A DNA stretch of 64,000 bases, from positions 4,556 to 68,555 of the forward strand of contig JAPOYA010000029.1 of NCBI GenBank assembly GCA_026706815.1, given 5' to 3'. Positions 5,797 through 62,894 of this stretch are shown here, piece by piece. The number at the start of each line of letters is the position of its first letter. Position 1 is the first letter of the stretch. Under the pieces are notes generated by a model that had not been told where the DNA came from, ran no database searches, and worked only from the letters and a program-made list of their open reading frames with translations. Both the position numbers and the translations under genes were made by a program. The DNA comes from Acidimicrobiaceae bacterium. GTDB taxonomy: Bacteria > Actinomycetota > Acidimicrobiia > Acidimicrobiales > Aldehydirespiratoraceae.

Positions 5797-6285
5797 ATGC
5801 AACTGCGCTTGGCCACCGTGGCCGATGCCGAAGACCTCCGCCGGATCTACAACCACGAGGTCGAGAACACGACAGCAACCTTCGATATCGAGCCGCGAAG
5901 CCTGCAAGACCAGCGTCAATGGATCACTGAGCGCCAGGGTGCGCTCGGCGTTGTGGTCGCCGAGCTTGAAGGCCGAGTGGTTGGCTTCGCCAGCCTCAGC
6001 CCCTACCGGAACCGGGCCGGTTATCGCACGACCGTCGAGAACAGCGTGTACGTGAGCAAAGATGCAAGAGGGCTCGGCGTGGGTCGGGCGCTGATGGACG
6101 AACTCATCGATATGGCGGTCAAACGGGGATTTCACAGCATGGTCGCTCACATAGTCGGCGGCCATGAAGCGAGCATGGCGCTCCACCGTGCCTGCGGGTT
6201 CGAGGTCGTGGGCACAGAACGCGAGGTGGGTCGGAAATTCGGCGTCTGGCTCGATGCAGTCATCATGCAGCGCATGCTCGCCTAG
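5797..6285 (+). CDS. GNAT N-acetyltransferase, phosphinothricin-acetyltransferase-like
   Basis: 'LRLATVADAEDLRRIYNHEVENTTATFDIEPRS...QRQW' plus the acetyl-CoA motif 'RGLGVGRALMDELI' is typical of the PAT/Bar-like GNAT subfamily. I chose the ATG at 5797 over the upstream ORF start at 5713. Confidence 0.8.
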   Translation: MQLRLATVADAEDLRRIYNHEVENTTATFDIEPRSLQDQRQWITERQGALGVVVAELEGRVVGFASLSPYRNRAGYRTTVENSVYVSKDARGLGVGRALMDELIDMAVKRGFHSMVAHIVGGHEASMALHRACGFEVVGTEREVGRKFGVWLDAVIMQRMLA

Positions 6286-6352
6286 TGGACCAGTGATCTA
6301 GTGGACCAGTGCTCTAGTGGCCCAGTGCTCAGTGGGGCCCAGTGGCCCAGTA
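6282..6352. repeat. Tandem repeat, 16-bp unit CTAGTGGACCAGTGMT x3 plus degenerate copies
   Basis: Units lie at 6282-6297, 6298-6313 and 6314-6329, followed by CAGTGGGGCCCAGTGGCCCAGTAC. The first unit contains the stop codon of the GNAT gene. Confidence 0.8.
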
Positions 6353-6394: not shown

Positions 6395-6477
6395 TGGGCC
6401 GAGAAGGATTTGAACCTTCGTAGGCATATGCCGACGGGTTTACAGCCCGTTCCCTTTGGCCGCTCGGGCACCGACCC
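6395..6477 (-). tRNA. tRNA-Tyr (GTA), class II with a long variable arm
   Basis: The reverse complement folds as acceptor GGGTCGG/TCGGCCC, anticodon stem ACGGG/CCCGT with loop CTGTAAA, variable arm CGGCATATGCCTAC, and T-arm GAAGG-TTCAAAT-CCTTC. CCA is not encoded. Confidence 0.9.
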
Positions 6478-31938: not shown

Positions 31939-34011
31939 ATGACCATCACGGAACCCACTACCGAGGGGCCCAAAACCGAGGGGCCGCTAGAACTCGAATC
32001 CGGCCGCGAGGCTCTGGCGGAGCGACCGCTCGGGGTGCTCACCCGGCCGCAGGGAGGCAGGGGTTGGCGTGACTGGTTGAGCACCGTCGACCACAAGAAG
32101 ATCGGGATCATGTACGGCGTTTCCGCCATGGTCTTCTTCGTGGTGGGCGGCATCGAGGCCCTGCTGATCCGTTTGCAGCTGGCGGTGCCCAACGGTGGTG
32201 TGCTGTCGGCCGATGTCTACAACCAGGTGTTCACCATGCACGGCGTGACCATGGTGTTCCTGTTCATCATGCCTTTGGCAGCGGCTTTCGCGAACTATCT
32301 GATTCCGCTTCAGATCGGCGCCAGAGATGTGGCGTTCCCGCGGCTCAACGCGCTCTCGTATTGGGTCTGGCTGTCTGGGGCGATCTTCTTGAACAGTTCT
32401 TGGATCGTCGGCGGAGGCGGAGCGGACTGTGGCTGGTTCTGCTACTCGCCCAACAGCGGTGTGACCTTCTCGCCGAGCCACGGCGTCGACTTCTATGCGA
32501 TCGGCTTGCTGATCGCCGGTATCGCCTCGTTGGTCTCAGCCATCAACCTGATCGTCACGTGTCTCAATATGCGGGCCCCCGGGATGGACTTGTTCCGCAT
32601 GCCGGTCATGACCTGGATGCTGTTGATCACCCAGTTCCTGCTGCTGTTCGCGTTGCCGGTCATCACCGTCGCTCTGTTCCTGTTGATGTTCGACCGCCTG
32701 TTCGACGCCAGCTTCTTCAATCCCGACGCGGGCGCCGATCCGTTGTTGTGGCAGCACCTCTTCTGGATATTCGGGCATCCCGAGGTCTACATCATCATTC
32801 TGCCCGCCTTCGGCGTCGTGTCCGAAGTGATCCCGACGTTCAGCCGCAAACCCATATTCGGCTACACGTTCATGGTGTTCTCGGGTATAGCCATCGGCTT
32901 CATGGGATGGGGGGTCTGGGCTCATCACATGTTCGTGTCGGGTATCGGTCCGATCTCGGTGGCGGCGTTCTCGTTGTCGACGATGTTCATTGCGGTGCCG
33001 ACGGGCGTGAAGGTCTTGAACTGGTTGGCCACCATGTGGGGCGGACAGATCCGCTTCACAACGGCAATGCTCTTCGCGGTGGGAACGGTGGCTATGTTCA
33101 CCATCGGCGGGCTTTCGGGGGTGACCCACGCTCTGGCGCCCGCTGACACCCAACAGACCGACACTTATTACATCGTGGCTCATTTCCACTATGTGATCTT
33201 CGGTGGCGGTGTGCTCGGGTTGATGGGCGGCCTCTACTACTGGTGGCCGAAGATATTCGGTTACATGCTCAACGAGCGCCGCGGCAAGATCAATTTCTGG
33301 TTGATGCTCATCGGCTTCAACCTGACCTTCGGGCCGATGCACATACTCGGACTGCAGGGGATGAGCCGTCGTATCGACACCTATTCATCGGGGTTCGGGT
33401 TCGAGTTCTGGAACATGGTGGCGACCATCGGCTCGTTCATCATCGCGGTCTCGGTTGTGGTCCTGTTCCACAACATCTGGAAGTCGAAACGAGAGGCGGC
33501 CGACCTGCCGCCCCCGGGTCCTGATCCCTGGGACGCACGAAGCCTTGAGTGGATGGTTCCCTCGCCGGTGCCCGAGCACAACTTCGATGAAGTTCCCACG
33601 GTGGAGGGCCTCGACGAGTGGTGGCACCGCAAATACAGCTTTGACGACGACGGCAGGGTCGTGCAGATCGCCACGGCTGAAGAAGCAGCCCAGGACGGCT
33701 CGGCCAAGGGCGTGCATCTGCCCGCGCCCTCGTTCTGGCCGCTGGTGCTGGCTGTGGGCCTGCCGTTGATCGGCTATGGACTGATATTCAACCTGTGGCT
33801 CTGCGTGCCCGGCGGTCTGTTGGTCGGCATGGGCATCTTCGCCTGGGCCCTCGAGCCTGTAGACGACCCCGATGCGACCCACGACCACCACGACGACGAC
33901 CACGGCGACGATGATGACGACCACGACGACACTGCCTCGGCTCCGGTTGCGCCCGGCGATGACACTGCCTCGGCTCCGGTTGCGCCCGGCGAGCAGCAGG
34001 GAGGTGAGTGA
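31939..34011 (+). CDS. ctaD: Cytochrome c oxidase subunit I with a fused CtaF-like two-TM C-terminal extension and an acidic His/Asp tail
   Basis: All canonical ligand motifs are present: 'FTMHG', 'GHPEVY', 'WAHHMF' and 'AHFHYV'. The C-terminal 'SFWPLVLAVGLPLIGYGL...' is followed by 'THDHHDDDHGDDDDDHDD' and two 'DTASAPVAPG' repeats. Confidence 0.95.
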   Translation: MTITEPTTEGPKTEGPLELESGREALAERPLGVLTRPQGGRGWRDWLSTVDHKKIGIMYGVSAMVFFVVGGIEALLIRLQLAVPNGGVLSADVYNQVFTMHGVTMVFLFIMPLAAAFANYLIPLQIGARDVAFPRLNALSYWVWLSGAIFLNSSWIVGGGGADCGWFCYSPNSGVTFSPSHGVDFYAIGLLIAGIASLVSAINLIVTCLNMRAPGMDLFRMPVMTWMLLITQFLLLFALPVITVALFLLMFDRLFDASFFNPDAGADPLLWQHLFWIFGHPEVYIIILPAFGVVSEVIPTFSRKPIFGYTFMVFSGIAIGFMGWGVWAHHMFVSGIGPISVAAFSLSTMFIAVPTGVKVLNWLATMWGGQIRFTTAMLFAVGTVAMFTIGGLSGVTHALAPADTQQTDTYYIVAHFHYVIFGGGVLGLMGGLYYWWPKIFGYMLNERRGKINFWLMLIGFNLTFGPMHILGLQGMSRRIDTYSSGFGFEFWNMVATIGSFIIAVSVVVLFHNIWKSKREAADLPPPGPDPWDARSLEWMVPSPVPEHNFDEVPTVEGLDEWWHRKYSFDDDGRVVQIATAEEAAQDGSAKGVHLPAPSFWPLVLAVGLPLIGYGLIFNLWLCVPGGLLVGMGIFAWALEPVDDPDATHDHHDDDHGDDDDDHDDTASAPVAPGDDTASAPVAPGEQQGGE

Positions 34012-34087
34012 CCATGACCACAGAAACCTCGGCTCCCGTTGCATCTGATGCCGACACCGCTGCCGCGGCTCTGGTTGCGCCCGGCGA
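33928..34087 (+). repeat. Tandem copies of the dispersed repeat (core GCGGCTCCGGTTGCGCCCGGCG) spanning the ctaD/ctaE junction
   Basis: Two 33-bp copies lie at 33928-33959 and 33961-33992. A degenerate copy sits at 34025-34050 and another good copy at 34053-34087. The ctaD stop and ctaE start lie between them. Confidence 0.85.
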
Positions 34088-34670
34088 CAGCAACGATCAC
34101 GGACCCACCACCGGCATCTCCAACACCAAGCTGGCGATGTGGCTGTTCCTCGGTTCGGAGTGTCTGCTGTTCGGCGGTCTGATCTCGACCTACCTGCTCT
34201 ACAAGACCCGCCGCGGCCCGGACAATCTGGCGATCCCGACAGACGTGTTCGACATTCCGTTCACTTCGATCAGCTCGTTCGTCCTGTTGATGAGCTCGCT
34301 GACAATGGTGCTCGCGCTCGCCGCGCTCACTCGGGGCGACAACCACGGTGCGCGTGTCTGGCTGCTGGCGACGAGCATGCTCGGCGGCGTGTTCATCGGC
34401 GGCCAGGTGTATGAGTTCACCAGCTTCCTGCGCGAGGGGGTCGGCTTCACCAACAATCCGGCCAGTTCCGCGTTCTACGCGTTGACCGGATTCCACGGGG
34501 TTCACGTCAGTCTCGGCATCGTGATGCTGATGTCGTTGTTCGTTGCCTCATGGCAGGGGAAGCTCCGTCAAGAGCATTCCGAGACCGTCGAGATCGTGGG
34601 TCTCTACTGGCACTTCGTCGACGTGGTGTGGATCTTCATCTTCACTGTCATCTATCTGGTTCCCGCCTAG
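34014..34670 (+). CDS. ctaE: Cytochrome c oxidase subunit III
   Basis: 'LAMWLFLGSECLLFGGLI', 'FYALTGFHGVHVSLG' and 'YWHFVDVVWIFIF'. The start is either ATG 34014 or GTG 34008, which overlaps the ctaD stop. Confidence 0.9.
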   Translation: MTTETSAPVASDADTAAAALVAPGDSNDHGPTTGISNTKLAMWLFLGSECLLFGGLISTYLLYKTRRGPDNLAIPTDVFDIPFTSISSFVLLMSSLTMVLALAALTRGDNHGARVWLLATSMLGGVFIGGQVYEFTSFLREGVGFTNNPASSAFYALTGFHGVHVSLGIVMLMSLFVASWQGKLRQEHSETVEIVGLYWHFVDVVWIFIFTVIYLVPA

Positions 34671-40314: not shown

Positions 40315-40884
40315 TCAGAGGAGGTTCTCGGTGATCAGGTCGCGCAGGCTTTCGCTGGTCAGCACCCCGGCCCATTGCTCCACTACCACTCCGTTGCGAT
40401 CGATCATCAGCGTGCTGGGCATGGCTATAAGGCCCAGGTCACCGAACAGCGATCCGTCTGAGTCCCATCCCGACGGATAGGAGACCCCTGTATCGGCCAG
40501 CAGCTCCAGCGAGGGCGCGGCGGACCCGTCGCGGCTGATGCCCAGAAAGTTAATGTGATCTTTGAGTTCCTGGTAGACGGTCTCAAACTCGGGCAGCTCG
40601 GCGCGGCACGGACCGCACCAAGCGGCGAAGAAGTTGACTACCAGCGGCTTGTCGAGATGGCTTGCGAACGTGTCGTGGCTGTCGCCGACCAGTGAGGCGA
40701 AACGGAGATCACCGATAGATCCTTCGACAGGCTCGTGCTCGACGTCTTCGGTTTCGGGAATGAGCGCGCCGTTAGAGAGTTTGATGCTGTTGGCCTCGCC
40801 GAATTCGCTGGAGGCGTCGTCGCCGCAGGCAGCGACAATCACGACGGTCAGCAAGACCGCGGCGAATCTACAGAACAAGCGCAT
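40315..40884 (-). CDS. TlpA/ResA-like thioredoxin-fold thiol-disulfide oxidoreductase, lipoprotein
   Basis: Lipobox 'VIVAAC' and the active site 'FFAAWCGPCRAELPEF'. Confidence 0.85.
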   Translation of the reverse strand: MRLFCRFAAVLLTVVIVAACGDDASSEFGEANSIKLSNGALIPETEDVEHEPVEGSIGDLRFASLVGDSHDTFASHLDKPLVVNFFAAWCGPCRAELPEFETVYQELKDHINFLGISRDGSAAPSLELLADTGVSYPSGWDSDGSLFGDLGLIAMPSTLMIDRNGVVVEQWAGVLTSESLRDLITENLL

Positions 40885-40910: not shown

Positions 40911-41014
40911 GCGCGCTGGTTGTCGCGGCTCCGGTTGCGCCCGGCGTAAGCAACGCGCCTGAGCAGCGCGCTGGTTGTCGCGGCTCCGGTTGCGCCCGGC
41001 GTAAGCAACGCGCC
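40911..41014 (+). repeat. Two identical 49-bp copies (period 55 bp) of the dispersed repeat, intergenic between whiB7-like and tlpA-like
   Basis: GCGCGCTGGTTGTCGCGGCTCCGGTTGCGCCCGGCGTAAGCAACGCGCC occurs at 40911-40959 and 40966-41014. The unit ends are inverted (GGCGCG...CGCGCC). Confidence 0.85.
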
Positions 41015-41093
41015 GCTGTGGCGCTGATCGACCGAGAACCGGGGCTCGCGTTTGCCGTTGCCTGAGTTCTGGGGGAGTGGTCGATCAGCGCCG

Positions 41094-41474
41094 TTAAGCG
41101 GTCCGCCGTTCCGCTCGTTCCCGAAGGTGGATCGGCACCGGAATCACCGGCATCAGATCCTCGGGACGAGCCACTTTGGGAGGACGGCCCCGACGGCGTT
41201 TGACGGCCAGCATCTCGCCGTTCATGAAGAGCTGCCCACCCCACACTCCCCACTGCTCTTTGTTGTTCAGAGCAGTTTCCAGGCAGGGCGCGATCACCGG
41301 GCACTCGACGCAGACGCGTTTTGCAGCAGAAATCTCGCCTATGTCGTCGGAGAAGAACAGGTCGTAGGCGTTGTCTACCGTCTTGCAGGCCGCGTGCGTC
41401 TCCCAGGCGGCGCTATCAGTTCGGAGTTGTTCAGTGGCTGGGAGTTGTTCAGTGATATCGACGAGGGTGGACAT
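41094..41474 (-). CDS. whiB7: WhiB-family transcription factor with a C-terminal AT-hook (WhiB7/WblC-like)
   Basis: Cys pattern 'C...C-VE-C-PVIAP-C', a 'GVWGG' turn, and the C-terminal 'KRRRGRPPK' AT-hook. The ATG at 41474 follows GGAAGGAG. Confidence 0.85.
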   Translation of the reverse strand: MSTLVDITEQLPATEQLRTDSAAWETHAACKTVDNAYDLFFSDDIGEISAAKRVCVECPVIAPCLETALNNKEQWGVWGGQLFMNGEMLAVKRRRGRPPKVARPEDLMPVIPVPIHLRERAERRTA

Positions 41475-41580
41475 GGCCCCGTCTCCTTCCGTGTTTCTGT
41501 TCTCTTCTTCTGTCGATTTCTTGTCTAGTGGGTTTCTTGTGCGGCTGTGTGTTGGGTAGGCAACGTGTTGGTCGGGCAAC

Positions 41581-44017: not shown

Positions 44018-44998
44018 GTGACTCTCGCCACGATAGGAACAGTTGCCAGACGGGGTGCGACAGGTTTTGAGCGGAAGCGGACCGACGTGGCCGGGGGACT
44101 CTTCAAAGCTCTGATCCTGTCCGCTCTTGTGGTGTCGCTGCTGGTTCTCGCGGTGCTGCTCATCGACACGGTCGCTGACGCCTGGTCCCAGCTCTCGACG
44201 AGGGCTTGGGACTTTTTGAACGGGTCGCTGCGGTCTCGTTCGATCGACGACAAGCTGGGTGTGAAGCAGGGGTTGTATGGATCGTTCTGGATCGGCGTGT
44301 TCGTCGCGTTGACGGCGTTCCCCATCGGCGTCGGGGCTGCGATCTACCTGGAGGAGTACGCCGCCAAGTCCCGCCTGGCCGCGCTCATCGAACTCGTGAT
44401 CCGGAACCTCGCGGGTGTGCCTTCCGTCGTCTACGGACTTCTCGGCCTGTTCCTGTTCGTTGAGCGCAGCACCGTCTTCGGTTTCGTCGGCCTAGGTTGG
44501 CTCGCTGACGCAACCGGCGGCCGTTCGGTGCTGTCAGCGGGGTTGACGCTGGCAGTTCTGGTGTTGCCGATCGTGATCATCACTGCACAGGAGGCGGTGC
44601 GCTCGGTTCCCTCAGGTCTCAAGGAGGGCGCCTATGGGCTTGGCGCGACCAAGTCCGAGATGGTGTGGACCCAGATCCTGCCCTACGCGGCGCCCGGAAT
44701 CTTGACGGGCACCTTGTTGGCAATGTCACGCGCCATCGGTGAGGCCGCGCCGTTGATCCTGGTCGGGGCGATCACTGGCGGCCTGACCCGCAACCCTGAG
44801 TTGTGGGACGCCTCGGGCCTCCGCGAGAAGTTCACTGCGCTTCCCATAATCATCGTCGAGTGGGTGAGCGAACGCGGCCGGGATCCTGGTTTTGCCGAAG
44901 CCGCGGCGGCCGCGATTGTTGTGCTGCTCGTGCTGGTGCTGTTGTTGAACATGACTGCGATCCTGCTGCGCAACCGTTTCGAGAGGAAGCGAGGCTGA
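44018..44998 (+). CDS. pstA: Phosphate ABC transporter permease PstA
   Basis: '[37 protein letters not shown]' and '[16 protein letters not shown]'. Confidence 0.9.
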
Positions 44999-45008
44999 CT
45001 GATGACCT

Positions 45009-45044
45009 CCACATATGGGACCACATATGGGACCACATATGGGA
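45009..45044. repeat. Perfect tandem repeat (CCACATATGGGA)x3 between pstA and pstB
   Basis: Three identical 12-mers lie at 45009-45020, 45021-45032 and 45033-45044. Each contains the palindrome CATATG. Confidence 0.85.
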
Positions 45045-45084
45045 CAATGCTCGACCGGCAGACGAAAGCTCTGAGGAGCGACCT

Positions 45085-46706: not shown

Positions 46707-48050
46707 ATGACAGCGCTCTTGGCCATCCTGGCGGCGGTCGTGGCGGCGGCGGTCGGTGCAATCGTTGCGGGAATCCGGCAACGGCGTCGCGTCAACCAGC
46801 ATCTTGACCGCATCGCGAATCGTGTCTCGGGTGTGGTCGCACCGGCGTCGAAATCTCCGGTCGCCGCGGTCGAACGCCTTGAGACGGTCCTTGAGGCCAC
46901 CGACGCCGAGCGACAGCTGCGGGGCGCCGAACGCCGCTATGAGGCCGCCCTCGAGGCGATTGACATGGGCGTCGTCGTCGTCGATGAGAACGGGAGCGCG
47001 GTTTTCTGCAACACCTCTGCCAGTTGGTACCGCGAGGGCCGGCACAGCGAGGCGGTCATTGCCCAGAAGATCGATGATTTGATCCACTCGGCGGTGAGGG
47101 GCGAGAGGGTCGAGCAGAGCGTTGTTCTGTATGGGCCGCCGCGGCGGGCGTTGTTCGTGTCGGCGTTGCCGATCCACACCGAAGATGAACTTGTGGGTGC
47201 GATAGCGCTCATTCACGATGTCACCGAGGTGGAGCAGGCCAACGCCATCCGGCGCGATTTCGTGGCCAATATAAGCCACGAGCTCCGCACGCCGATCGGC
47301 GCCGTTTCGTTGCTCGCCGAAACGCTGATCGGTGAGCACGACCCCGAGGTGATCGACTCGCTGGCCCATCGCCTGCTTGTCGAAGCAGGACGTTTGACCA
47401 GCACGGTTCAGGATCTGCTCGAACTCAGTCGGATTGAGCACAGCGGCGATTCGGAGTTCTCCGCGGTCGCTGTTCAAGGCGTCGTTGGCGGAGCGCATGA
47501 TCGGGCGCGCGCGGCGGCGGCACAGCGGGGTGTGGCGATCACCGTCGACGCGCCCGAACTGGATTTGCAGGTGCGCGGCGACCGCCGTCAGCTCACTTCA
47601 GCGATGTTCAATCTGCTTGACAATGCCATCAAGTTCTCGGACCCGGAGGGTGGTTCTGTGTCGGTCGGCGTCCGCGAGGCTCACGGTCGAGTTGAGGTTG
47701 AGGTTGCCGACAGCGGCATCGGGATCCCGCGTCAGGATCTCGAGCGCATTTTCGAACGCTTCTATCGGGTTGACCGAGGGCGCAGCCGCACGACTGGCGG
47801 TATCGGCCTCGGCTTGTCGATGGTGCGCCACATCGTCGCCAATCACGGGGGACGCGTGTCGGTCGATTCGACCGAGGGCGAGGGAGCCACGTTCACGATG
47901 GACCTCCCGCTGATCCCGGACAGCCCCGGGGTGGGTGCCGCGCAGACTTCCGCGGCTCCGGCTGCGCCCGGCGAAAGCACCGCGCAGGCTTCCGCGGCTC
48001 CGGTTGCGCCCGGCAAAAACACAGCGCCCGGCGGAAACAGCCCCCCGTGA
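46707..48050 (+). CDS. senX3: Sensor histidine kinase (SenX3/PhoR-like; TM + PAS + HisKA + HATPase)
   Basis: H-box 'FVANISHELRTPIG', N-box 'LLDNAIKFS', and G-boxes 'DSGIGIP' and 'GGIGLGLSMV'. The C-terminal Ala/Pro tail is encoded by the dispersed repeat. Confidence 0.85.
   Translation: MTALLAILAAVVAAAVGAIVAGIRQRRRVNQHLDRIANRVSGVVAPASKSPVAAVERLETVLEATDAERQLRGAERRYEAALEAIDMGVVVVDENGSAVFCNTSASWYREGRHSEAVIAQKIDDLIHSAVRGERVEQSVVLYGPPRRALFVSALPIHTEDELVGAIALIHDVTEVEQANAIRRDFVANISHELRTPIGAVSLLAETLIGEHDPEVIDSLAHRLLVEAGRLTSTVQDLLELSRIEHSGDSEFSAVAVQGVVGGAHDRARAAAAQRGVAITVDAPELDLQVRGDRRQLTSAMFNLLDNAIKFSDPEGGSVSVGVREAHGRVEVEVADSGIGIPRQDLERIFERFYRVDRGRSRTTGGIGLGLSMVRHIVANHGGRVSVDSTEGEGATFTMDLPLIPDSPGVGAAQTSAAPAAPGESTAQASAAPVAPGKNTAPGGNSPP
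47939..48041 (+). repeat. Two 42-bp tandem copies plus a partial copy of the dispersed repeat at the senX3/regX3 junction
   Basis: CGCGCAGACTTCCGCGGCTCCGGCTGCGCCCGGCGAAAGCAC lies at 47939-47980. CGCGCAGGCTTCCGCGGCTCCGGTTGCGCCCGGCAAAAACAC lies at 47981-48022. A partial copy runs to 48041. Confidence 0.85.
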
Positions 48051-48763
48051 ATTCTGCGGCGCGAATTCTGGTGGTGGAGGACGAAGAGTCCTTTGTCGAG
48101 GCGCTCCGTGTGGGTCTTCAGCGCGAGGGGTTCCTCGTTGAGATCGCCCGCGACGGCACCGAGGCGTTGGAGCGGTTCGCCCGGAACAAGCCCGATCTGG
48201 TTCTGCTGGACGTGATGCTGCCGGGGATGTCCGGCGTCGACGTCTGCCGCGAGATCCGCTCGTCGTCTTCGGTTCCGATCATCATGGTCACCGCGAAGAG
48301 CGAGGAGATCGACGCGGTCGTGGGTCTTGAAGTCGGCGCCGACGACTATGTGGCGAAGCCCTATCGATTGCGGGAACTGGTGGCCCGAATACGGGCGGTC
48401 CTGCGTCGTTCTGCGGTAAGTCGCTGGCCGGGCAGCGGTGGTCCCGGCGCCGACTCCAGCGATCAGGTTCTGCGCGTCGGCGCACTGCAACTCGACCGAG
48501 AGCGTCACGAGGCCACCGTCGATGGTGAAGTGGTCCAACTCCCGTTGAAGGAGTTCCAGATATTGGCGTTGCTAATGTTGAACCAAGAGATGGTTGTGAC
48601 CCGCGAGACCTTCATCGACCGGGTGTGGGGCTATGACTACGTGGGCGACACCAAAACGCTCGACGTCCACATCAAGCGGCTGAGAGCGAAGATTGAACCG
48701 AACCCGGATCGCCCCGAACGCATCGTCACGATCCGCGGGGTCGGCTACAAACTGACGGCTTGA
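48047..48763 (+). CDS. regX3: OmpR-family response regulator (RegX3/PhoP-like)
   Basis: 'ILVVEDEESF...DLVLLDVMLPGMSG...ADDYVAKPY' receiver domain plus a winged-helix C-terminus 'IVTIRGVGYKL'. The GTG overlaps the kinase stop (GTGA). Confidence 0.9.
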   Translation: MNSAARILVVEDEESFVEALRVGLQREGFLVEIARDGTEALERFARNKPDLVLLDVMLPGMSGVDVCREIRSSSSVPIIMVTAKSEEIDAVVGLEVGADDYVAKPYRLRELVARIRAVLRRSAVSRWPGSGGPGADSSDQVLRVGALQLDRERHEATVDGEVVQLPLKEFQILALLMLNQEMVVTRETFIDRVWGYDYVGDTKTLDVHIKRLRAKIEPNPDRPERIVTIRGVGYKLTA

Positions 48764-54671: not shown

Positions 54672-56291
54672 ATGAACAGCAGGGCAGTGAACAGCAGTGT
54701 GGGTCGGCGCCGGGCGCTGTTGTCTGTATTCGACAAATCGGGGATCGTGGAGTTCGCCGGAGGACTGGTTGAACTCGGCTGGGAACTGGTCTCAAGCGGT
54801 GGCACCGCAGAGGTCATATCCGCCGCTGGCATCGCGGTCACCGATGTCGCGGACTACACCGGCTCGCCGATCATGTTGGGGCACCGTGTGGCGACACTGC
54901 ACCCGCGCCTTCACGGCGGCATCCTCGCAGATCGAGAAGACCCCGAGCATCAAGCGGACCTGATAGCCAACAACATCGAGGTGATCGACCTGGTTGTCGG
55001 CAATCTCTATCCGTTCCGGTCCGAACCGGGCATCGAGATGATCGATATCGGCGGCCCGACTCTCATGCGGTCTGCGGCCAAGAACCACGAGTACGTCGGG
55101 GTTGTCACGAATCCTGCGGACTACGAACCGATCTTGGCGGAACTTCGCTCCAACGACTCGGCCTTGTCCGCGCAGACGCGGCGGCGATTGGCCAGGGCGG
55201 CGTTCGCCCACACCGCGGCCTATGACGCAGCGATCGTCGGCTGGCTCGACAGCACCGACCCGGAGTCGGCTGCGCTTCCCCATACAGCGCTTCCCCACAC
55301 AGCGCTTCCCTCCACAGTGCTTCCCCCCACGATCCATGTCGCTCTGGAACGTGCGGAAGTGCTCCGCTATGGCGAAAACCCGCACCAGAGCGGGGCGCGC
55401 TACCGCTCGATGGGCGAGACCAGCATGTGGGATCGGGTGGAACAGTATTCCGGTGTGTCGCTGAGCTACCTGAACCTCTTCGATGCGGACGCGGCGTGGC
55501 GCCTGGCCCAAGAACTGGGTGATCTCTCCGGCGGCTGTGCGGCGGCGATCATCAAACACGCCAACCCCTGCGGTGCGGCGGTGGCGACCGACCTTGCCTC
55601 GGCCTATCAGCGTGCCTTCGAGTGCGATCCCCGTAGTGCGTTCGGCGGGATCGTGGCGGTCAATCGAATCGTGGGGGAGTCGACGGTCCAAGCGATGGAA
55701 GCGGCTGCTCAGGCTGATGTGATCATCGCTCCCGGTTATGCCGACGGTGTTGTCGACCGCCTGATCGCCAAGCGTAGAAACACCCGTATTCTGCGGATTG
55801 AAGCCCCCGAGGCGTCCTCAGCGTCCGCAAAGGCCAATATCAACCTGCGCCAAATAACCGACGGTTTCCTGGTCCAGGAAGCGCAGCGCTTCGCTTCGGC
55901 GCCCCCCCAGTGGCAGGTGGCCACAGAGCGTCAGCCAACCGCCGCGGAGACGGCCGACGCAGCCTTTGCATGGCGAGTCTGCGGTCACGTCAAGTCCAAC
56001 GCTGTGGTCCTGGTTCGTGACGGCGTGGCCTGGGGGATCGGAGCGGGTCAACAAAACCGGGTTGAAGCAGCCCGAATAGCTGTGAGCAAAGCCGACGGCA
56101 GAGCCCAAGGAGGCGCCTGCGCCAGCGACGCCTTCTACCCTTTCCCCGACGGCATTCACGCTGCGGCAGATGCTGGAGCAGCCATAATCGTGCAACCGGG
56201 CGGGTCGGTCAACGACGAAGAGACGATAGCCGCGGCAAATGAGCGCGGCATCGCCATGGTCTTCACCGCCGAACGGCAGTTTCTCCACTAG
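54672..56291 (+). CDS. purH: Bifunctional AICAR transformylase / IMP cyclohydrolase
   Basis: '[16 protein letters not shown]', '[14 protein letters not shown]' and '[10 protein letters not shown]', with C-terminal '[10 protein letters not shown]...[10 protein letters not shown]'. Confidence 0.95.
55272..55331 (+). repeat. In-frame 15-bp tandem repeat x4 inside purH ([20 protein letters not shown])
   Basis: GCGCTTCCCCATACA / GCGCTTCCCCACACA / GCGCTTCCCTCCACA / GTGCTTCCCCCCACG. Confidence 0.85.
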
Positions 56292-59100: not shown

Positions 59101-60903
59101 GTGAGTTCTAGAGTTCCTTTGAGTGAAGGCCTCGTAGTCGACGATCACATCTGGCGGCGCGGCGCGCGCTTGATCGCACGGTCGCTGCGCGCGCATCCGG
59201 GTCCTCATACGATTGCGATGATCGGTGCGACGCTGTTCGTGTTCGCTGCGGTCGGGGGCGCCTGGGTGTTGCGCGGAGTGACCGACGAGTTGATCATTCC
59301 GGCTTTCGACAGCAGCGCACTGGCCGAGACCGGCTTGGAAAGGAATATTTCGGGCGACGCGGTCTGGCTGGCGATGGCCGCGCTGGTCGGGGTGTCGTTG
59401 ATCCGCGGCGTCAGCGTGGTCACCCGCCGGTTCTTCCTGTCGATGGCTGAGTTCCGGACTCAGCGTGATTGGCGGCGTGGACTGCTGTGGCACTACCTCG
59501 ACGTGCCTCTGCGCTTCCATCGCTCGAAACCGACCGGCGAGTTGCTGGCGCACGCGGACATAGACGTGCAGATGGCCACGATGGTCCTCAAACCCCTGGC
59601 GTTCTCGTTGAGCGTGGTTCTGCTGGTGCTGGTCTCGGTTGTCAGCATTGCCTTGGTCCACCCGTTGCTGGCTTTGATAGCCGCGATCCTTTTTCCGACT
59701 CTGGTGATCGTCAGCCAGAAGTACACGTCTTTGGTGGAGGAGCCCGCGGCGCTCGCCCAGCAGCGTGTCGGCGATGTGTCGGCGATCGCGCACGAGAGTT
59801 TCGACGGCGCTGTGGTCGTGAAGACGCTGGGGCGTGAAGCCGCTGAGGTTGAGCGCATGCTCAAAGCCTCGGATCGGTTGCGGGAGTGGCGGGTGCGGGT
59901 CGGCCGCCTTCGGGCGAACTTCGAGCCTGTGATCGATTCGCTTCCCAACGTCGGCATTATTCTGCTGATCTTGGTCGGCACTTGGCTGGTGTCGCGCGGT
60001 TCGGCGAGCGAGGGTGACCTGGTGTTGGCGGCCACTCTGTTCGGGCTGCTCACGACCCCTTTGCGGGTGTTGGGGTTCTTTCTTGAGGAGTTGCCTCGTT
60101 CAGTGGTGTCCCTTGAACGGGTCGATCGGGTGATGGCGCATCCGCTCCAGGATCGCAGCGGCACCGCCGCGCTGCCCGATGGTCCGCTGGGTGTGGTCGT
60201 CGACGACCTGACGGTCGGGTACGCAAGCAGCGAAGCGCTGTCGGGAATGTCGTTTGTCGTCGATCCGGGTGAGACGCTTGCGTTGGTGGGGCCGACGGGG
60301 TCCGGCAAGTCCACATTGCTTGAATCCATCGCGGGTCTGCTCGAACACTCCGGCGGGAGTATCAGGATCGGAGGGGTTGCGGTTGGTGAACTCGCTCCTG
60401 AGGAGTTGTCGCGTGGGGTGGCTCTGGCGTTTCAAGAGGCTTTCCTGTTCGCCTCTTCGATTGCGGAGAACGTGGCGATGGGTCGGGCGGGTGTTGATGT
60501 CGACGGTTCGCTGCGGCTGGCTGAGGCCGACGGCTTCGCGGCTGCGCTGCCGTCGGGCTCTGCGACGGTGGTGGGCGAGCGCGGTCAGACGCTGTCGGGA
60601 GGGCAACGACAGCGGGTGGCGCTGGCCCGGGCGCTGGCCCGCTCGCCGCAGTTACTGTTGCTCGACGACGCCACAAGCGCGGTGGACCCGGTGGTGGAAG
60701 CCCGCATTCTCGACAACCTGGGTCAGCACCTCGACACCACAGTCATTGTGGTGGCCCACCGCATATCCACGATCTTGTTGGCTGACCGGGTTGCGTACAT
60801 CGAAGCCGGAAGAGTTGTGGCTGTCGGCCGACACGAGGATCTCCTGCAGCGTGAGGACTACCGCTCACTGGTGATGACATACGAACAGGCCGATCTGCCA
60901 TGA
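59101..60903 (+). CDS. ABC exporter, fused permease/ATPase (first of a heterodimer pair)
   Basis: Six-TM N-domain, Walker A 'GPTGSGKSTLL', signature 'LSGGQRQRVALARAL', and Walker B 'LLLLDDATSAVD'. Confidence 0.9.
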   Translation: MSSRVPLSEGLVVDDHIWRRGARLIARSLRAHPGPHTIAMIGATLFVFAAVGGAWVLRGVTDELIIPAFDSSALAETGLERNISGDAVWLAMAALVGVSLIRGVSVVTRRFFLSMAEFRTQRDWRRGLLWHYLDVPLRFHRSKPTGELLAHADIDVQMATMVLKPLAFSLSVVLLVLVSVVSIALVHPLLALIAAILFPTLVIVSQKYTSLVEEPAALAQQRVGDVSAIAHESFDGAVVVKTLGREAAEVERMLKASDRLREWRVRVGRLRANFEPVIDSLPNVGIILLILVGTWLVSRGSASEGDLVLAATLFGLLTTPLRVLGFFLEELPRSVVSLERVDRVMAHPLQDRSGTAALPDGPLGVVVDDLTVGYASSEALSGMSFVVDPGETLALVGPTGSGKSTLLESIAGLLEHSGGSIRIGGVAVGELAPEELSRGVALAFQEAFLFASSIAENVAMGRAGVDVDGSLRLAEADGFAAALPSGSATVVGERGQTLSGGQRQRVALARALARSPQLLLLDDATSAVDPVVEARILDNLGQHLDTTVIVVAHRISTILLADRVAYIEAGRVVAVGRHEDLLQREDYRSLVMTYEQADLP

Positions 60904-62894
60904 GCGGGTCGGCCAACTCGTCGCCCCCTCCGAGGGCTCCGGCTGCGCCCGGCGACAACAGAGCGCCCGGCTCCGGTCCCGCGGCTCCGACCGCGCCCGG
61001 CGACAGCGCCGCATCGGGGGTGGAAGAGGCCATTGCGCTGCTCGACGGCAACGCAGCGCCGGACGTCGGCGCTCTGACCGTGCTGCGGCGCGGGCTTGCG
61101 ATCAGTCCGGAACTGAAGTCCGGGCTGCGTGTGACCCTGGCGATGGCCTTCACCGCCGCGGCCGGACGTCTGATCGTGCCCATACTGGTGCAGCAGGTTC
61201 TGGACAGGGGACTGCTGGGTGAGGGGGGCTATCGACCCGGATTCGTGCTGCTCGCCTCGTGTCTGGCGTTCGGCATCGTGATCGTGGTCTTCGCAGCGGC
61301 CCGGACAACTCACATACGTCTGGTGACAGCGGCCGAATCATTGCTTCTGGGTTTGCGGATCCGTGCCTTTGAACACATCCACAAGCTGAGCATGGCCGAC
61401 CACACGGGGAGCAGGCGCGGTGTGCTGGTCAGCAGGGTCACCTCAGACGTGGAGTCGCTGGCACAGTTCACCCAGTGGGGCGCGTTGAGTTGGATCATCA
61501 ACAGCTCGATCGTCGTCGGAACATTGACGGTGATGACGGTCTACAACTGGAAGCTGACGCTTCTGGTCGTGCTGTGCCATCTTCCGTTGATCCCGTTCCT
61601 GCGTTGGGTGCAGGTCCGCCAGTTCGCCGCGTATGGACTAGTGAGGACCCGCGTGTCCGAAACGCTGGGTGAGACCTCCGAGGCGGTCTCCGGCGCGCCG
61701 GTCATCCGGGCTTACGGTTACGACGCCACGCTGCGGGAGCGCCTCGACGGGGTGGTCGACCGCCAGTACGGCGCCCAGCTTCGCTCGAGCATCTGGTTCG
61801 CCGGGATGCTCCCGGTAGTCGACTTCTTCTCGTCGTTGTCCTTGGCGATGGCGGTGGGTGCGGGCGTTTGGTGGAGCGGCAGCGTTGACGTCGGCGTGGG
61901 TGAATTGGTGGCGTTCTTGTTCCTTGTCAACATGTTGGTGAATCCCATCGCCGAAGTGGGCGAGGTGATGGATCAGACCCAGACTGCTCTGGCCGGATGG
62001 TGGAAGATCCTCGCTGTTCTCGACGTGCCGGTTGAAGTCGAGGAGCCAGAAGACGGCGTGGACCTTCCGGCTGGGCCGTTGGCGGTGGCGGTCGCTGGTG
62101 TCAACTTCCGATACCGAGACGGTGAGCAGGTGCTTCACGACGTCGATCTGTCGATTGCTGCGGAAAGCAATGTTGCGGTGGTTGGCGAGACCGGCAGCGG
62201 CAAGACGACACTGGCGCGTCTGTTGACACGGCTCGCCGACCCGACTGACGGCACGATCCTGGTCGGTGGAGTTGATCTGGCGACCGTCGATCCCGCATCG
62301 CGGCGCAGGGCGATCCGCATGGTTCCCCAGGACGGATTCCTGTTCGACACCTCGATCGGGGAGAACATCTGCTTCGGCCGCCCCGACGCGACCATCGACG
62401 ATGCCGTTGCCGCTGTCGATGCGCTCGGGCTCACCGACTGGCTCGCGAGGGTTCCAGGTGGTTTGGACGCGATTGTGGGGGAGAGGGGCGGTCGCCTCTC
62501 GGTCGGCGAACGCCAGCTTGTCGCATTGGCTCGGGCCCAGGTGGCCGATCCAGGCCTGTTGCTGCTCGATGAGGCTACTTCAGCGGTCGACCCCGAAACT
62601 GAAGAGGCGCTGGTTGCGGCTCTGAGCCGTCTGGCGGCGGGTCGAACCATGATTTCGATCGCCCACCGCCTGTCCACCGCGGAGCGGGCCGATCTCGTGT
62701 TGGTGTTCGACGACGGCCGGATCGTACAACAGGGCACGCACGAAGAACTCGTGTCAGTCGAGGGCGTCTACAGCACCATGTACGACTCCTGGATCGGCAA
62801 CACCCGCACCGATGCAACCGTTCAACTCCGCCAGTCGCTCAGGACCGTCGGAGAATCCCGTACTATTCGCTATGGTCGGCGGTCACGCTGGTAG
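60900..62894 (+). CDS. ABC exporter, fused permease/ATPase (second of the pair)
   Basis: Walker A '[14 protein letters not shown]', '[14 protein letters not shown]', and '[12 protein letters not shown]'. ATGA overlap with the upstream gene. The N-terminal Pro/Ala-rich ~40 aa are encoded by the dispersed repeat. Confidence 0.9.
60934..61007 (+). repeat. Two copies (period 48 bp) of the dispersed repeat at the junction of the two ABC exporter genes
   Basis: GGGCTCCGGCTGCGCCCGGCGACAAC lies at 60934-60959 and GCGGCTCCGACCGCGCCCGGCGACAGC at 60981-61007. Confidence 0.75.

Follow-up and report, generated by a model that had tools for sequence, protein, structure and literature searches.

Among the loci of mycobacterial interspersed repetitive units (MIRU; described by Supply et al. 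1997 and covered in PMC3184786 and PMC12548453) is a two-component kinase/regulator junction, and filled MIRU sites are flanked by tetranucleotide direct repeats (PMC3184786). A repeat family of comparable build is present in Acidimicrobiia; it is described here from a stretch of 64,000 nt of Acidimicrobiaceae DNA (called the window below) and from related genomes. With MIRU it shares short tandem units at tens of dispersed loci, many of them at co-directional gene junctions, with a kinase/regulator junction among the loci of both systems; the units contain ORFs, copy number is variable among relatives, and a transposase of its own is absent. The differences are as follows: the basic unit is modular and of 30–33 nt (MIRU: 40–100 bp); one 22-nt core is common to arrays of many periods; arrays stand in both orientations, at convergent and divergent intergenic sites and, in one case, as a linker inside a protein; units join the flanking proteins in frame and do not form separate mini-ORFs; tetranucleotide direct repeats were not seen in one empty/filled pair. 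The parallel with MIRU had been drawn in the original prediction; its tandem build, dispersal, gene junctions and copy-number variation were found again, while single orientation and siting restricted to operons were not. Read-through small ORFs had also been expected; mini-ORFs of the MIRU type, overlapping the stop and start codons of the neighbours, were not seen, the units being either fused to flanking ORFs or non-coding.

Strict membership in MIRU is impossible since the hosts are Acidimicrobiia and not Mycobacterium; the likeness described here is one of structure. The kind of element, a MIRU-like minisatellite, is known; new is this family of Acidimicrobiia with its 22-base core, and a description of this particular family was not found in the literature. 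It gives an independent, non-mycobacterial case of a MIRU-like dispersed minisatellite that can be compared locus by locus in many species, and such comparisons help to ask about the spread, the core constancy and the gene-boundary preference of these elements.

The supposition that no equivalent had been described outside mycobacteria was too strong: REP/BIME, BOX, RUP, Rickettsia palindromic elements (RPE) and further small repeats, in-frame fusions included, have been reviewed (PMC3184786), with RPE and the pneumococcal BOX and RUP given as small repeats fused in frame to genes (section 15). RPE, BOX and RUP resemble the present family as DNA repeats tolerated in coding sequence, where they extend 5' or 3' ends or insert internally, frame and position being filtered by selection; they are longer (RPE-type: ca. 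100–150 bp), palindromic or MITE-like and usually single-copy per site, whereas the Acidimicrobiia unit is non-palindromic and stands in hypervariable tandem arrays. REP/BIME are similar in units of ca. 35 nt, extragenic clusters at operon junctions and family-wide conservation, but REP are imperfect palindromes that form stable stem-loops, alternate in orientation and are tied to RAYT (Y1) transposases, and the Acidimicrobiia repeats give no fold signal and are direct and tandem, with many copies coding. Unlike MITEs, the arrays have no terminal inverted repeats, only the unit consensus being found at array ends; unlike CRISPR, they have no unique spacers, the stretches between cores being repeated along with the cores.

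Vertebrate minisatellites of the Jeffreys type are dispersed arrays of unequal unit length with a common short GC-rich core and hypervariable copy number; Supply et al. reportedly likened MIRU loci to vertebrate minisatellites in 2000. The GC-rich core common to arrays of different unit lengths and the hypervariability recur in the Acidimicrobiia family; it differs in its haploid bacterial genome and in the partial translation of its arrays. DNA uptake sequences (DUS of Neisseria, USS of Pasteurellaceae) stand for the most part singly, at an even spacing and at roughly a hundred times the density. They, too, are short motifs conserved across related species, in both orientations and in biased frames when coding, but the copies in Acidimicrobiia are clustered, tandem and sparse.

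Repeat arrays and host genes in the window

The core GCGGCTCCGGYTGCGCCCGGCG gave nine matches in the 64-kb window, all on the + strand; query GCGGCTCCGGTTGCGCCCGGCG, up to 3 mismatches allowed; match starts: 33937, 33970, 34065, 40925, 40980, 47952, 47994, 60933 and 60981; expected from shuffles: 0.01 matches, nine or more being reached in 0 of 100 shuffles. The repeat had been predicted at five loci of the window with every copy on the + strand, and both statements were borne out. The nine cores form five clusters; a profile HMM of 122 distinct units, run over the whole window, found no further copies, and the first 33 kb were free of the repeat. Tandem Repeats Finder gave 33924–33992 (period 33, 97% matches), 40911–41014 (period 55, 100% matches) and 47938–48027 (period 42, 89% matches); the cores at 60933 and 60981 are spaced by 48 nt. 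The number of copies, predicted as 2–4 per locus, is actually 2 per locus plus partial modules. At 34025–34087, where copies had been placed, one full unit was obtained; the copy that should begin at 34025 is only a degenerate core (Table 1).

Table 1. Repeat copies and host or neighbour genes in the window (positions in nt of the window).
Feature	Position	Strand	Remarks
ctaD	31939..34011	+	COX1 fused to subunit IV-like segment; carries tail array
CtaD C-terminal tail array	33924..33993	+	two 33-nt units, cores 33937–33958 and 33970–33991
ctaE (COX3)	34014..34670	+	carries head units
Degenerate core TCGGCTCCCGTTGCATCTGATG in CtaE N-terminal head	34029..34050	+	16/22 bases; below HMM threshold
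Full unit in CtaE N-terminal head	34065..34097	+	core and tail ACAGCAACGAT, read AAALVAPGDSND
Thioredoxin/redoxin-like gene	40315..40884	-	start 27 nt from intergenic array
Intergenic array, whiB/thioredoxin-like spacer	40911..41014	+	two identical 55-nt units
whiB-family gene	41094..41579	-	maximal ORF; stop 80 nt from intergenic array
Histidine kinase (HisKA and HATPase_c)	46707..48050	+	downstream of phoU; carries tail array
Histidine kinase C-terminal tail array	47938..48041	+	two 42-nt units and one short B module
OmpR-type response regulator	48047..48763	+	overlaps kinase stop codon
First ABC transporter fused permease/ATPase	59101..60903	+	stop overlaps next start (ATGA)
Second ABC transporter fused permease/ATPase	60900..62894	+	carries head array
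Second ABC transporter protein N-terminal head array	60933..61011	+	two cores 48 nt apart

All coding copies in the window read A-(A/S)-P-(V/A)-A-P-G, in agreement with the common relative frame that had been claimed; the units of the CtaD tail read DDTASAPVAPG, twice. A Shine-Dalgarno sequence (GGGAGGTG) is located within the ctaD tail; ATG 34014 is the most likely start of ctaE, and its exact 218-aa product is present in public annotation. For the whiB-family gene the public call is 126 aa, and the maximal ORF is listed in Table 1. Arrays of this family interrupt short-read assemblies and displace predicted start codons, a point to heed when MAGs of these Acidimicrobiia are annotated.

The array between the whiB-family and thioredoxin-like genes does not code and runs antisense to the gene on either side; with the antisense in-frame arrays of relatives it contradicts the single orientation relative to genes that had been proposed. 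The short B module of the kinase tail (GCGCCCGGCGGAAACAGC) occupies 48022–48039, and the array ends just 5' of the GTGA in which the kinase stop and the regulator start overlap; in the second ABC head a short B module stands between the two cores. The kinase/regulator locus of the window is a phosphate-type two-component junction; the MIRU-bearing two-component operon of mycobacteria is senX3-regX3. In-frame hosts of the family comprise CtaD, CtaE, the histidine kinase, the ABC transporter, NuoJ, SdhC, a GMC oxidoreductase, MenD and an FAH-family protein.

Unit structure and reading frame

The unit consists of two modules, A (GCGGCTCCGGYT) and B (GCGCCCGGCG followed by AMAGCAMM(GCG)), with the extended consensus CC-core-AMAGCAMMGCG. 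The basic unit is non-palindromic and of 30–33 nt; array periods range from 27 to 96 nt (mainly 30–63), the longer ones being due to an extra B module or to a captured piece of host flank. The core varies at position 11 (T/C) and position 13 (G/A); genome-specific homogenisation of these variants was not observed, both coexisting within genomes and even within arrays.

In the window, the codons of APxAPG are always GCT CCG GTT/GCT GCG CCC GGC; GCT makes up only 14% of Ala codons and GTT only 11% of Val codons, and for a given APVAPG just these codons have a probability of 4.6e-4 per occurrence. Periods of non-coding arrays are 32, 35, 37, 50 and 55 nt, none of these a multiple of three. At the ABC junction of relatives, reverse-complement copies are also in frame. 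The recurrence of rare codons, the non-triplet periods of non-coding arrays and the in-frame reverse complements together establish a DNA-level repeat and not a convergent peptide, as the original prediction had it.

All sense coding loci (at least 11 independent) are in frame AAPxAPG, and all credible antisense coding loci are in frame PGAxGAA. Off-frame coding calls (L008, L038, L039, L047, L055, L099 and, antisense, L014) were rejected as over-extended or spurious ORFs of a simple gene caller. The constant frame, and positions that suit flexible linkers (protein ends and, in a MenD-like enzyme, one site between domains), would be expected from peptide-level selection, by which the Ala/Pro/Gly segments are functional linkers or tails and their nucleotide identity is the result of recent gene conversion. 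This explanation is very improbable; it is largely refuted by the arrays, about half of the total, that are non-coding and whose periods are not divisible by three. Moreover, one site carries either sense or antisense arrays, and thus different peptides; the segment is wholly absent from some orthologues that are just 82–87% identical; and the host proteins are unrelated, cytoplasmic as well as membrane-bound.

Distribution and orientation among genomes

In the genome scan, matches fell at 114 or more loci. At least 62 arrays, belonging to 37 orthology groups (independent loci), come from a single Acidimicrobiia clade (Ca. Aldehydirespiratoraceae and relatives; at least 16 genomes), to which the family is confined among the matches listed; five chance-like singletons from the same clade are left out of this set. 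The family is thus both dispersed and tandem, as predicted. In other taxa, 54 matches fell at 53 loci, only one of which had more than a single hit; they are regarded as chance matches since the tail consensus is absent from them. Viral contigs gave three single matches and no arrays. Around the ascertained loci, ca. 490 kb of sequence yielded no more than about 3 additional arrays.

Chance GC-rich sequence of low complexity, or an assembly artefact, has a negligible probability and is regarded as refuted. High-GC genomes of unrelated taxa do yield single chance 19-mer matches, but the nine matches in the window by far exceed expectation, identical arrays were found in four independent assemblies, the family is present in complete long-read chromosomes, complete chromosomes with the family including OZ240616, OZ220692, OZ244898, OZ242187 and OZ243951, and the tail consensus is limited to the Acidimicrobiia clade.

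About half of the 62 arrays lie in intergenic DNA, between genes that are co-directional (with the array in sense or antisense), convergent or divergent, and one array in relatives is an internal, interdomain linker of the MenD-like enzyme; the predicted siting at gene junctions was retained in this form, and the statement that every locus is an operon junction was abandoned. Among co-directional intergenic arrays, sense is about twice as frequent as antisense. About 73–75% of arrays follow the direction of the local genes and positive GC skew; positive local GC skew was counted for 47 of 68 arrays and is inseparable from gene orientation. The orientation bias could point to a strand-specific function.

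RNA folding had been proposed as a check with the original prediction; RNA and DNA folds of units and arrays, calculated for both strands, were not better than those of shuffled sequence (z -0.35 to +1.4). An Rfam family was not found: a scan of the whole window at gathering threshold and one of the surroundings of the intergenic array at E-value threshold returned nothing but tRNAs and noise. An RNA-level element at operon junctions, tuning mRNA stability or translational coupling in the manner of REP/BIME and as proposed for MIRU, is unlikely in view of these results, and arrays also stand antisense, at convergent or divergent sites and inside genes; a junction with 0–13 units in close relatives is ill-suited to tuned regulation. 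Consistent with such an element are the twofold excess of sense arrays and the many arrays at co-directional stop/start overlaps (ctaD/ctaE, kinase/regulator, ABC1/ABC2 and coaE/uvrB, the last with arrays in five species). A 16S-23S spacer setting of some arrays, suggested by an upstream GGATCACCTCC, was rejected: no rRNA was found in Rfam, and translation identified the coaE-uvrB junction.

Copy-number turnover and proposed origin

Each locus of the window is repeat-bearing in relatives of 79–90% identity, always with another unit number or period. Comparison of relatives, a further check proposed at the outset, revealed variation of the VNTR type (unit ranges from protein clusters at ≥90% identity): CtaD tails, 0–7 units; CtaE heads, 0–5 units; ABC heads, either no unit, units in sense, or antisense units numbering 2, 9 or 13. 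In L129 the ABC head carries 13 tandem antisense units of 36 nt with identical cores and near-identical linkers; in L133 it is empty. The ctaD/ctaE junction of L132 (81.7% identical) is without a unit, and the outgroups L125 and L127 (72–73% identical) have no unit in 22 kb. Among 3–4 near-identical assemblies, no difference in copy number was observed. Visible consequences are Ala/Pro/Gly-rich protein tails and heads that vary, and a varying distance between neighbouring genes at junctions; with 0–13 units on core respiratory and transport proteins, the arrays are a source of rapid variation in protein length.

Local expansion, contraction and decay of arrays follow from perfect multi-copy arrays, from copy numbers that differ in every orthologous comparison and from array-specific linkers; the likely cause is replication slippage or unequal recombination. 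The element is probably a lineage-specific, non-autonomous dispersed minisatellite formed by seeding of single units, expansion by slippage and selective filtering; a selfish or neutral minisatellite is the best reading. Single units would have been seeded at many sites within one Acidimicrobiia clade, by a short templated insertion at GC-rich microhomology, which is favoured, or by a trans-acting enzyme, favoured likewise. Empty and filled alleles differ by insertions and not by point changes; in the one empty/filled pair compared (L133 vs L129), only a shared GC-rich, GCCGCG-like microhomology was found, with no clean target-site duplication or insertion signature. A transposase or autonomous partner was not found near the arrays, and no paralogue recurs beside arrays within any genome; a trans-acting gene may lie farther away. 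Selection would then act as a filter, the observed pattern being that arrays last nowhere but in spacers between genes and in those protein ends or linkers that are disordered; within genes, only one frame per orientation survives, AAPxAPG and PGAxGAA both consisting of small, flexible residues.

At orthologous sites the core (19–22 nt) is exact despite 15–20% divergence of the flanking DNA. Such constancy is not predicted by pure neutrality and would imply selection, gene conversion or a duplication advantage of intact cores. Also counted against the minisatellite reading are the absence of genome-specific homogenisation, of a clean insertion signature and of copy-number differences among the near-identical assemblies, and the orientation bias. 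There is a small chance that the 22-nt core is a sequence-specific signal for trans-acting machinery unique to this clade, which could be a recombinase/transposase aimed at gene boundaries or a DNA-uptake/recombination receptor. If so, the constancy of the core over at least 16 species would reflect that interaction, and the family would lend itself, as a tractable case in nature, to the long-open question of how MIRU-type elements move and persist; were uptake part of its role, Actinomycetota would have their first uptake-signal-like motif.

In a related explanation, which is rather improbable too, the core is a functional cis-acting DNA signal that is read by a clade-specific protein and maintained by selection or molecular drive, the arrays being a by-product; candidates are a DNA-uptake or recombination signal and a binding site of a nucleoid/segregation protein. 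It accords with a core that stays exact in at least 16 species while flanks and linkers diverge, with two CCGG half-sites 10 nt apart in the core, with arrays kept at orthologous positions and with the bias to positive GC skew; core-like CtaD tails already present in outgroups (APVTAG; gcaccggtgaccgccggcgac) look as motif creation by drift and drive would. On the other side, copies are clustered in arrays and not singly spread, both over the window and around the ascertained loci, filled and empty alleles differ by insertions, the skew bias is inseparable from gene orientation, and the L091 array decays in core and linker alike.

Some members of the clade are sponge-associated, and the Acidimicrobiia concerned are uncultured; for strain typing of such bacteria the arrays are usable as VNTR markers.

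Repeat arrays of the window and structure of the unit

The window was searched with the 22-base core GCGGCTCCGGTTGCGCCCGGCG, up to three mismatches being allowed; nine matches were found, all on the + strand, against 0.01 expected by chance (dinucleotide-preserving shuffles of the window), and the dispersed repeat of the original prediction was borne out. The copy that had been placed at 34025 is not a full one; a degenerate core only (16 of 22 bases) is present at 34029-34050. A profile HMM of 122 different family units detected no further copy in the window, and the first 33 kb are without any. Flanking genes were named by Pfam. The Shine-Dalgarno sequence ahead of the probable ctaE start is part of the ctaD tail. 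pstB and phoU immediately precede the kinase/regulator pair, which is therefore of the phosphate type.

Features of the window (positions in nt)
Feature	Position	Strand	Basis or remark
Core matches (starts)	33937, 33970, 34065, 40925, 40980, 47952, 47994, 60933, 60981	+	GCGGCTCCGGTTGCGCCCGGCG, ≤3 mismatches
Array	33924-33992	+	Tandem Repeats Finder, period 33
Array	40911-41014	+	Tandem Repeats Finder, period 55, 100% identical
Array	47938-48027	+	Tandem Repeats Finder, period 42
CtaD	31939-34011		Pfam
CtaE	probable start ATG 34014		Pfam; 218-aa product from this ATG found in public annotation
Thioredoxin-like gene	40315-40884	minus	Pfam
whiB	41094-41579	minus	Pfam
Histidine kinase	46707-48050		Pfam
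OmpR-type regulator	48047-48763		Pfam
Two fused ABC transporter proteins	59101-60903 and 60900-62894		Pfam
His/Asp-rich run in CtaD tail, ahead of repeat units	33860-33930		HDHHDDDHGDDDDDHDD
Inverted repeat, perfect, 14 bp	41020-41093	minus	GGCGCTGATCGACC ... GGTCGATCAGCGCC
12-nt tandem repeat, perfect	45009-45045		CCACATATGGGA, 3 copies
15-nt tandem repeat	55272-55330		3.9 copies
16-nt and 8-nt tandem repeats	6280-6351		CTAGTGGACCAGTGCT

The window is matched by four independent metagenome assemblies at 99.9-100%, and its proteins are annotated under an 'Acidimicrobiaceae bacterium' MAG. Contigs of the window's own strain (short-read; L119, L123 and L124) begin or end inside arrays or a few hundred bases off, and short-read assemblies appear to be broken by the arrays; the sequence L120 is chimeric-looking just upstream of the kinase array. 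The His/Asp-rich CtaD run is kept in kind in more than 100 Acidimicrobiia CtaD orthologues, and the C-terminal segment of the window CtaD is subunit IV-like.

The repeat is a DNA-level element and not a convergent peptide, as had been proposed: every APxAPG in the window genes is encoded by GCT CCG GTT/GCT GCG CCC GGC (background: GCT, 14% of alanines; GTT, 11% of valines; probability of the exact codons by chance, 4.6e-4 per independent occurrence); there are non-coding arrays with periods indivisible by three (32, 35, 37, 50, 55 nt); and the in-frame reading of reverse-complement copies is S-P-G-A-T-G-A-A. Alignment of all copies gave the consensus CC-GCGGCTCCGGYTGCGCCCGGCG-AMAGCAMMGCG. The unit is built of two modules, A (GCGGCTCCGGYT) and B (GCGCCCGGCG, then AMAGCAMM); the basic unit, A + B, is 30-33 nt long, and longer periods (42, 45, 48-51, 55, 60, 63 nt) include a further B module or a linker peculiar to the array. 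The core has no stop codon in any of its six frames. No inverted termini were found on the unit, Rfam gave no match at the arrays, and folding was no better than that of shuffles (RNA and DNA of single units, dimers and the window intergenic array; z from -0.35 to +1.4).

Distribution, gene context and reading frames in relatives

An exact 19-mer was scanned for in one genome per species (at least 114 loci). Among the matches listed, 61 loci come from Acidimicrobiia MAGs (Ca. Aldehydirespiratoraceae, 'Acidimicrobiales', and 'Acidimicrobiaceae' including sponge-derived bins); together with the window, and after exclusion of five chance-like Acidimicrobiia singletons, they make up at least 62 junction-level arrays in at least 37 orthology groups and at least 16 genomes. 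Other taxa contributed 53 loci (54 matches, all but one single hits among the matches listed) and viral contigs three single matches; the tail consensus was absent throughout the other taxa, and their matches are the chance ones to be expected in high-GC DNA. Among the matches listed, the family is restricted to one clade.

Gene context in relatives was assigned with a simple codon-usage gene caller and then checked by translation. About half of the arrays among the matches listed are intergenic, every gene arrangement being represented: between co-directional genes (sense, ~12 independent loci; antisense, ~6), convergent genes (~6) and divergent genes (~7). The remainder are coding, placed at the ends or in linkers of proteins: in the hosts also seen in the window (CtaD tail, CtaE head, kinase tail, ABC head), in the tails of NuoJ, SdhC (2 vs 3 units in two species) and a GMC-oxidoreductase (5 vs 2 units), at the head of a B12-binding-domain protein (3 vs 1 units), as an interdomain insert of nine units in a MenD-like enzyme and, as antisense copies, in the tail of an FAH-family protein and inside a hydantoinase-like protein. 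The restriction to operon junctions that had been claimed is thus wrong. The claim of a single orientation also fails: the intergenic array of the window is antisense to both flanking genes, and relatives' arrays run both ways, though with a bias (~73-75% with local gene direction and positive GC skew, two factors inseparable in 8-kb samples).

In all of at least 11 independent sense coding loci the frame is AAPxAPG, and in all credible antisense ones it is PGAxGAA; the other four frames, giving Arg-rich or Cys-containing peptides, were met only in spurious or over-extended ORFs. Arrays frequently span the entire spacer and directly adjoin a stop or start codon. Five species have the repeat between coaE and uvrB, and in two of them the coaE stop is the TAG of the unit tail. 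The repeat persists solely at harmless sites and in harmless frames.

Copy-number turnover and proposed origin

Array positions are inherited: at all window loci the repeat is found at the matching junction in species with flanks 79-90% identical, with unit number, period or linker differing every time. VNTR-type variation, also foreseen, was found; in the 15 orthology groups with at least two species among the matches listed, copy number differs in almost all (3/1/4/1/1, 2/7/4, 6/1 units, for example). Protein clusters (≥90% identity), a sample unselected for the motif, contained CtaD tails of 0-7 units (682-747 aa), CtaE heads of 0-5 units (206-261 aa) and ABC heads with no units, sense units, both orientations, or 2, 9 or 13 antisense units. 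The longest of these heads, in the related sequence L129 (2517-2970), consists of tandem 36-nt units encoding (SSPGVAGAAHPV)n, with identical cores and near-identical linkers, a few bases being changed in the last units; its relatives have 9, 2 or 0 units. Arrays of 3-4 near-identical assemblies are identical, whereas orthologues differ; change is thus fast between species or sub-species, and none was seen at the finest scale available. Arrays grow, shrink and decay locally; that of the relative L091 is decaying in both core and linker.

Empty sites occur within the clade at ctaD/ctaE (L132, 81.7% identical to the window) and at the ABC head (L133); no unit was present over 22 kb in two outgroups of 72-73% identity. 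The serS-crcB interval of L132 (15600-20300) carries an insertion with an AbiEii-like gene, a DDE transposase and a large SLH/RCC1 protein. In most CtaD orthologues of 80-87% amino-acid identity, the C-terminus is ...AEPVTAGAEGGE instead; the DNA for this ending (gcaccggtgaccgccggcgac) is ~76% like the core, perhaps by coincidence, as a decayed old copy or as a sign that microhomology guides seeding.

Expansion would proceed by replication slippage or unequal recombination, and array-specific linkers would arise when the first duplication takes in host flank; the L129 linker looks like such captured flank, since it resembles that left at the empty site of L133. New sites were probably seeded repeatedly: one junction has copies of either orientation, and the clade has filled as well as empty sites. 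The favoured route is a short templated insertion where GC-rich microhomology exists, or else a putative trans-acting enzyme. The core is exact across species between which neutral sites are expected to be saturated, and no genome-specific homogenisation of it was seen; candidate explanations are a duplication advantage of intact cores, inter-locus conversion and selection for protein binding.

Comparison with known repeats and other repeats nearby

The mycobacterial two-component operon with MIRU copies is senX3-regX3; in the present family too a kinase/regulator junction is among the loci, though the two families are presumably unrelated. The MIRU analogy, drawn originally, holds for tandem structure, dispersal, gene-boundary preference, non-autonomy and copy-number variation, but not for single orientation or operon-only location. 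MIRU units of 40-100 bp occupy 40-50 loci inside polycistronic operons, show signs of insertion, have ORFs overlapping neighbouring genes, and serve widely as VNTR markers (PMC3184786, PMC12548453). The present family, in contrast, has its host in another class, a shorter and modular unit, one core common to arrays of many periods, both orientations, all intergenic contexts, and units fused straight to flanking proteins with no mini-ORFs; it is MIRU-like in behaviour and not MIRU. Membership of REP/BIME (no palindrome), MITE (no inverted termini), CRISPR (no unique spacers) and uptake sequences (copies sparse and clustered) was rejected. Selfish repeats tolerated in frame are known for RPE, BOX and RUP (PMC3184786); the unusual part is tandem arrays that are in frame, hypervariable and of either orientation. 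The repeats form a real, clade-specific hypervariable minisatellite family, apparently undescribed.

Directly behind the whiB stop codon, the inverted repeat surrounds an inner, C-rich hairpin (RNA fold -39.9 kcal/mol, z = -6.2); the inner block (ccggggctcgc..gccgttgcc) is kept even in outgroups at 72% identity. Rfam gave no family at this site, perhaps a terminator or a conserved 3' element of whiB. In the related sequence L073, the spacer between whiB and the thioredoxin-like gene has a single family unit adjoined by an unrelated ~37-nt tandem repeat (ccaacatcttgcagaaYgcgcgaactacScggcg, ~4 copies; 5930-6060, reverse strand). In the window, the 12-nt repeat lies in the gap after the ORF 44018-44998, the 15-nt repeat encodes (ALPHT)n in the ORF 54672-56291, and the 16-nt and 8-nt repeats are found immediately upstream of a minus-strand tRNA gene (6395-6477).
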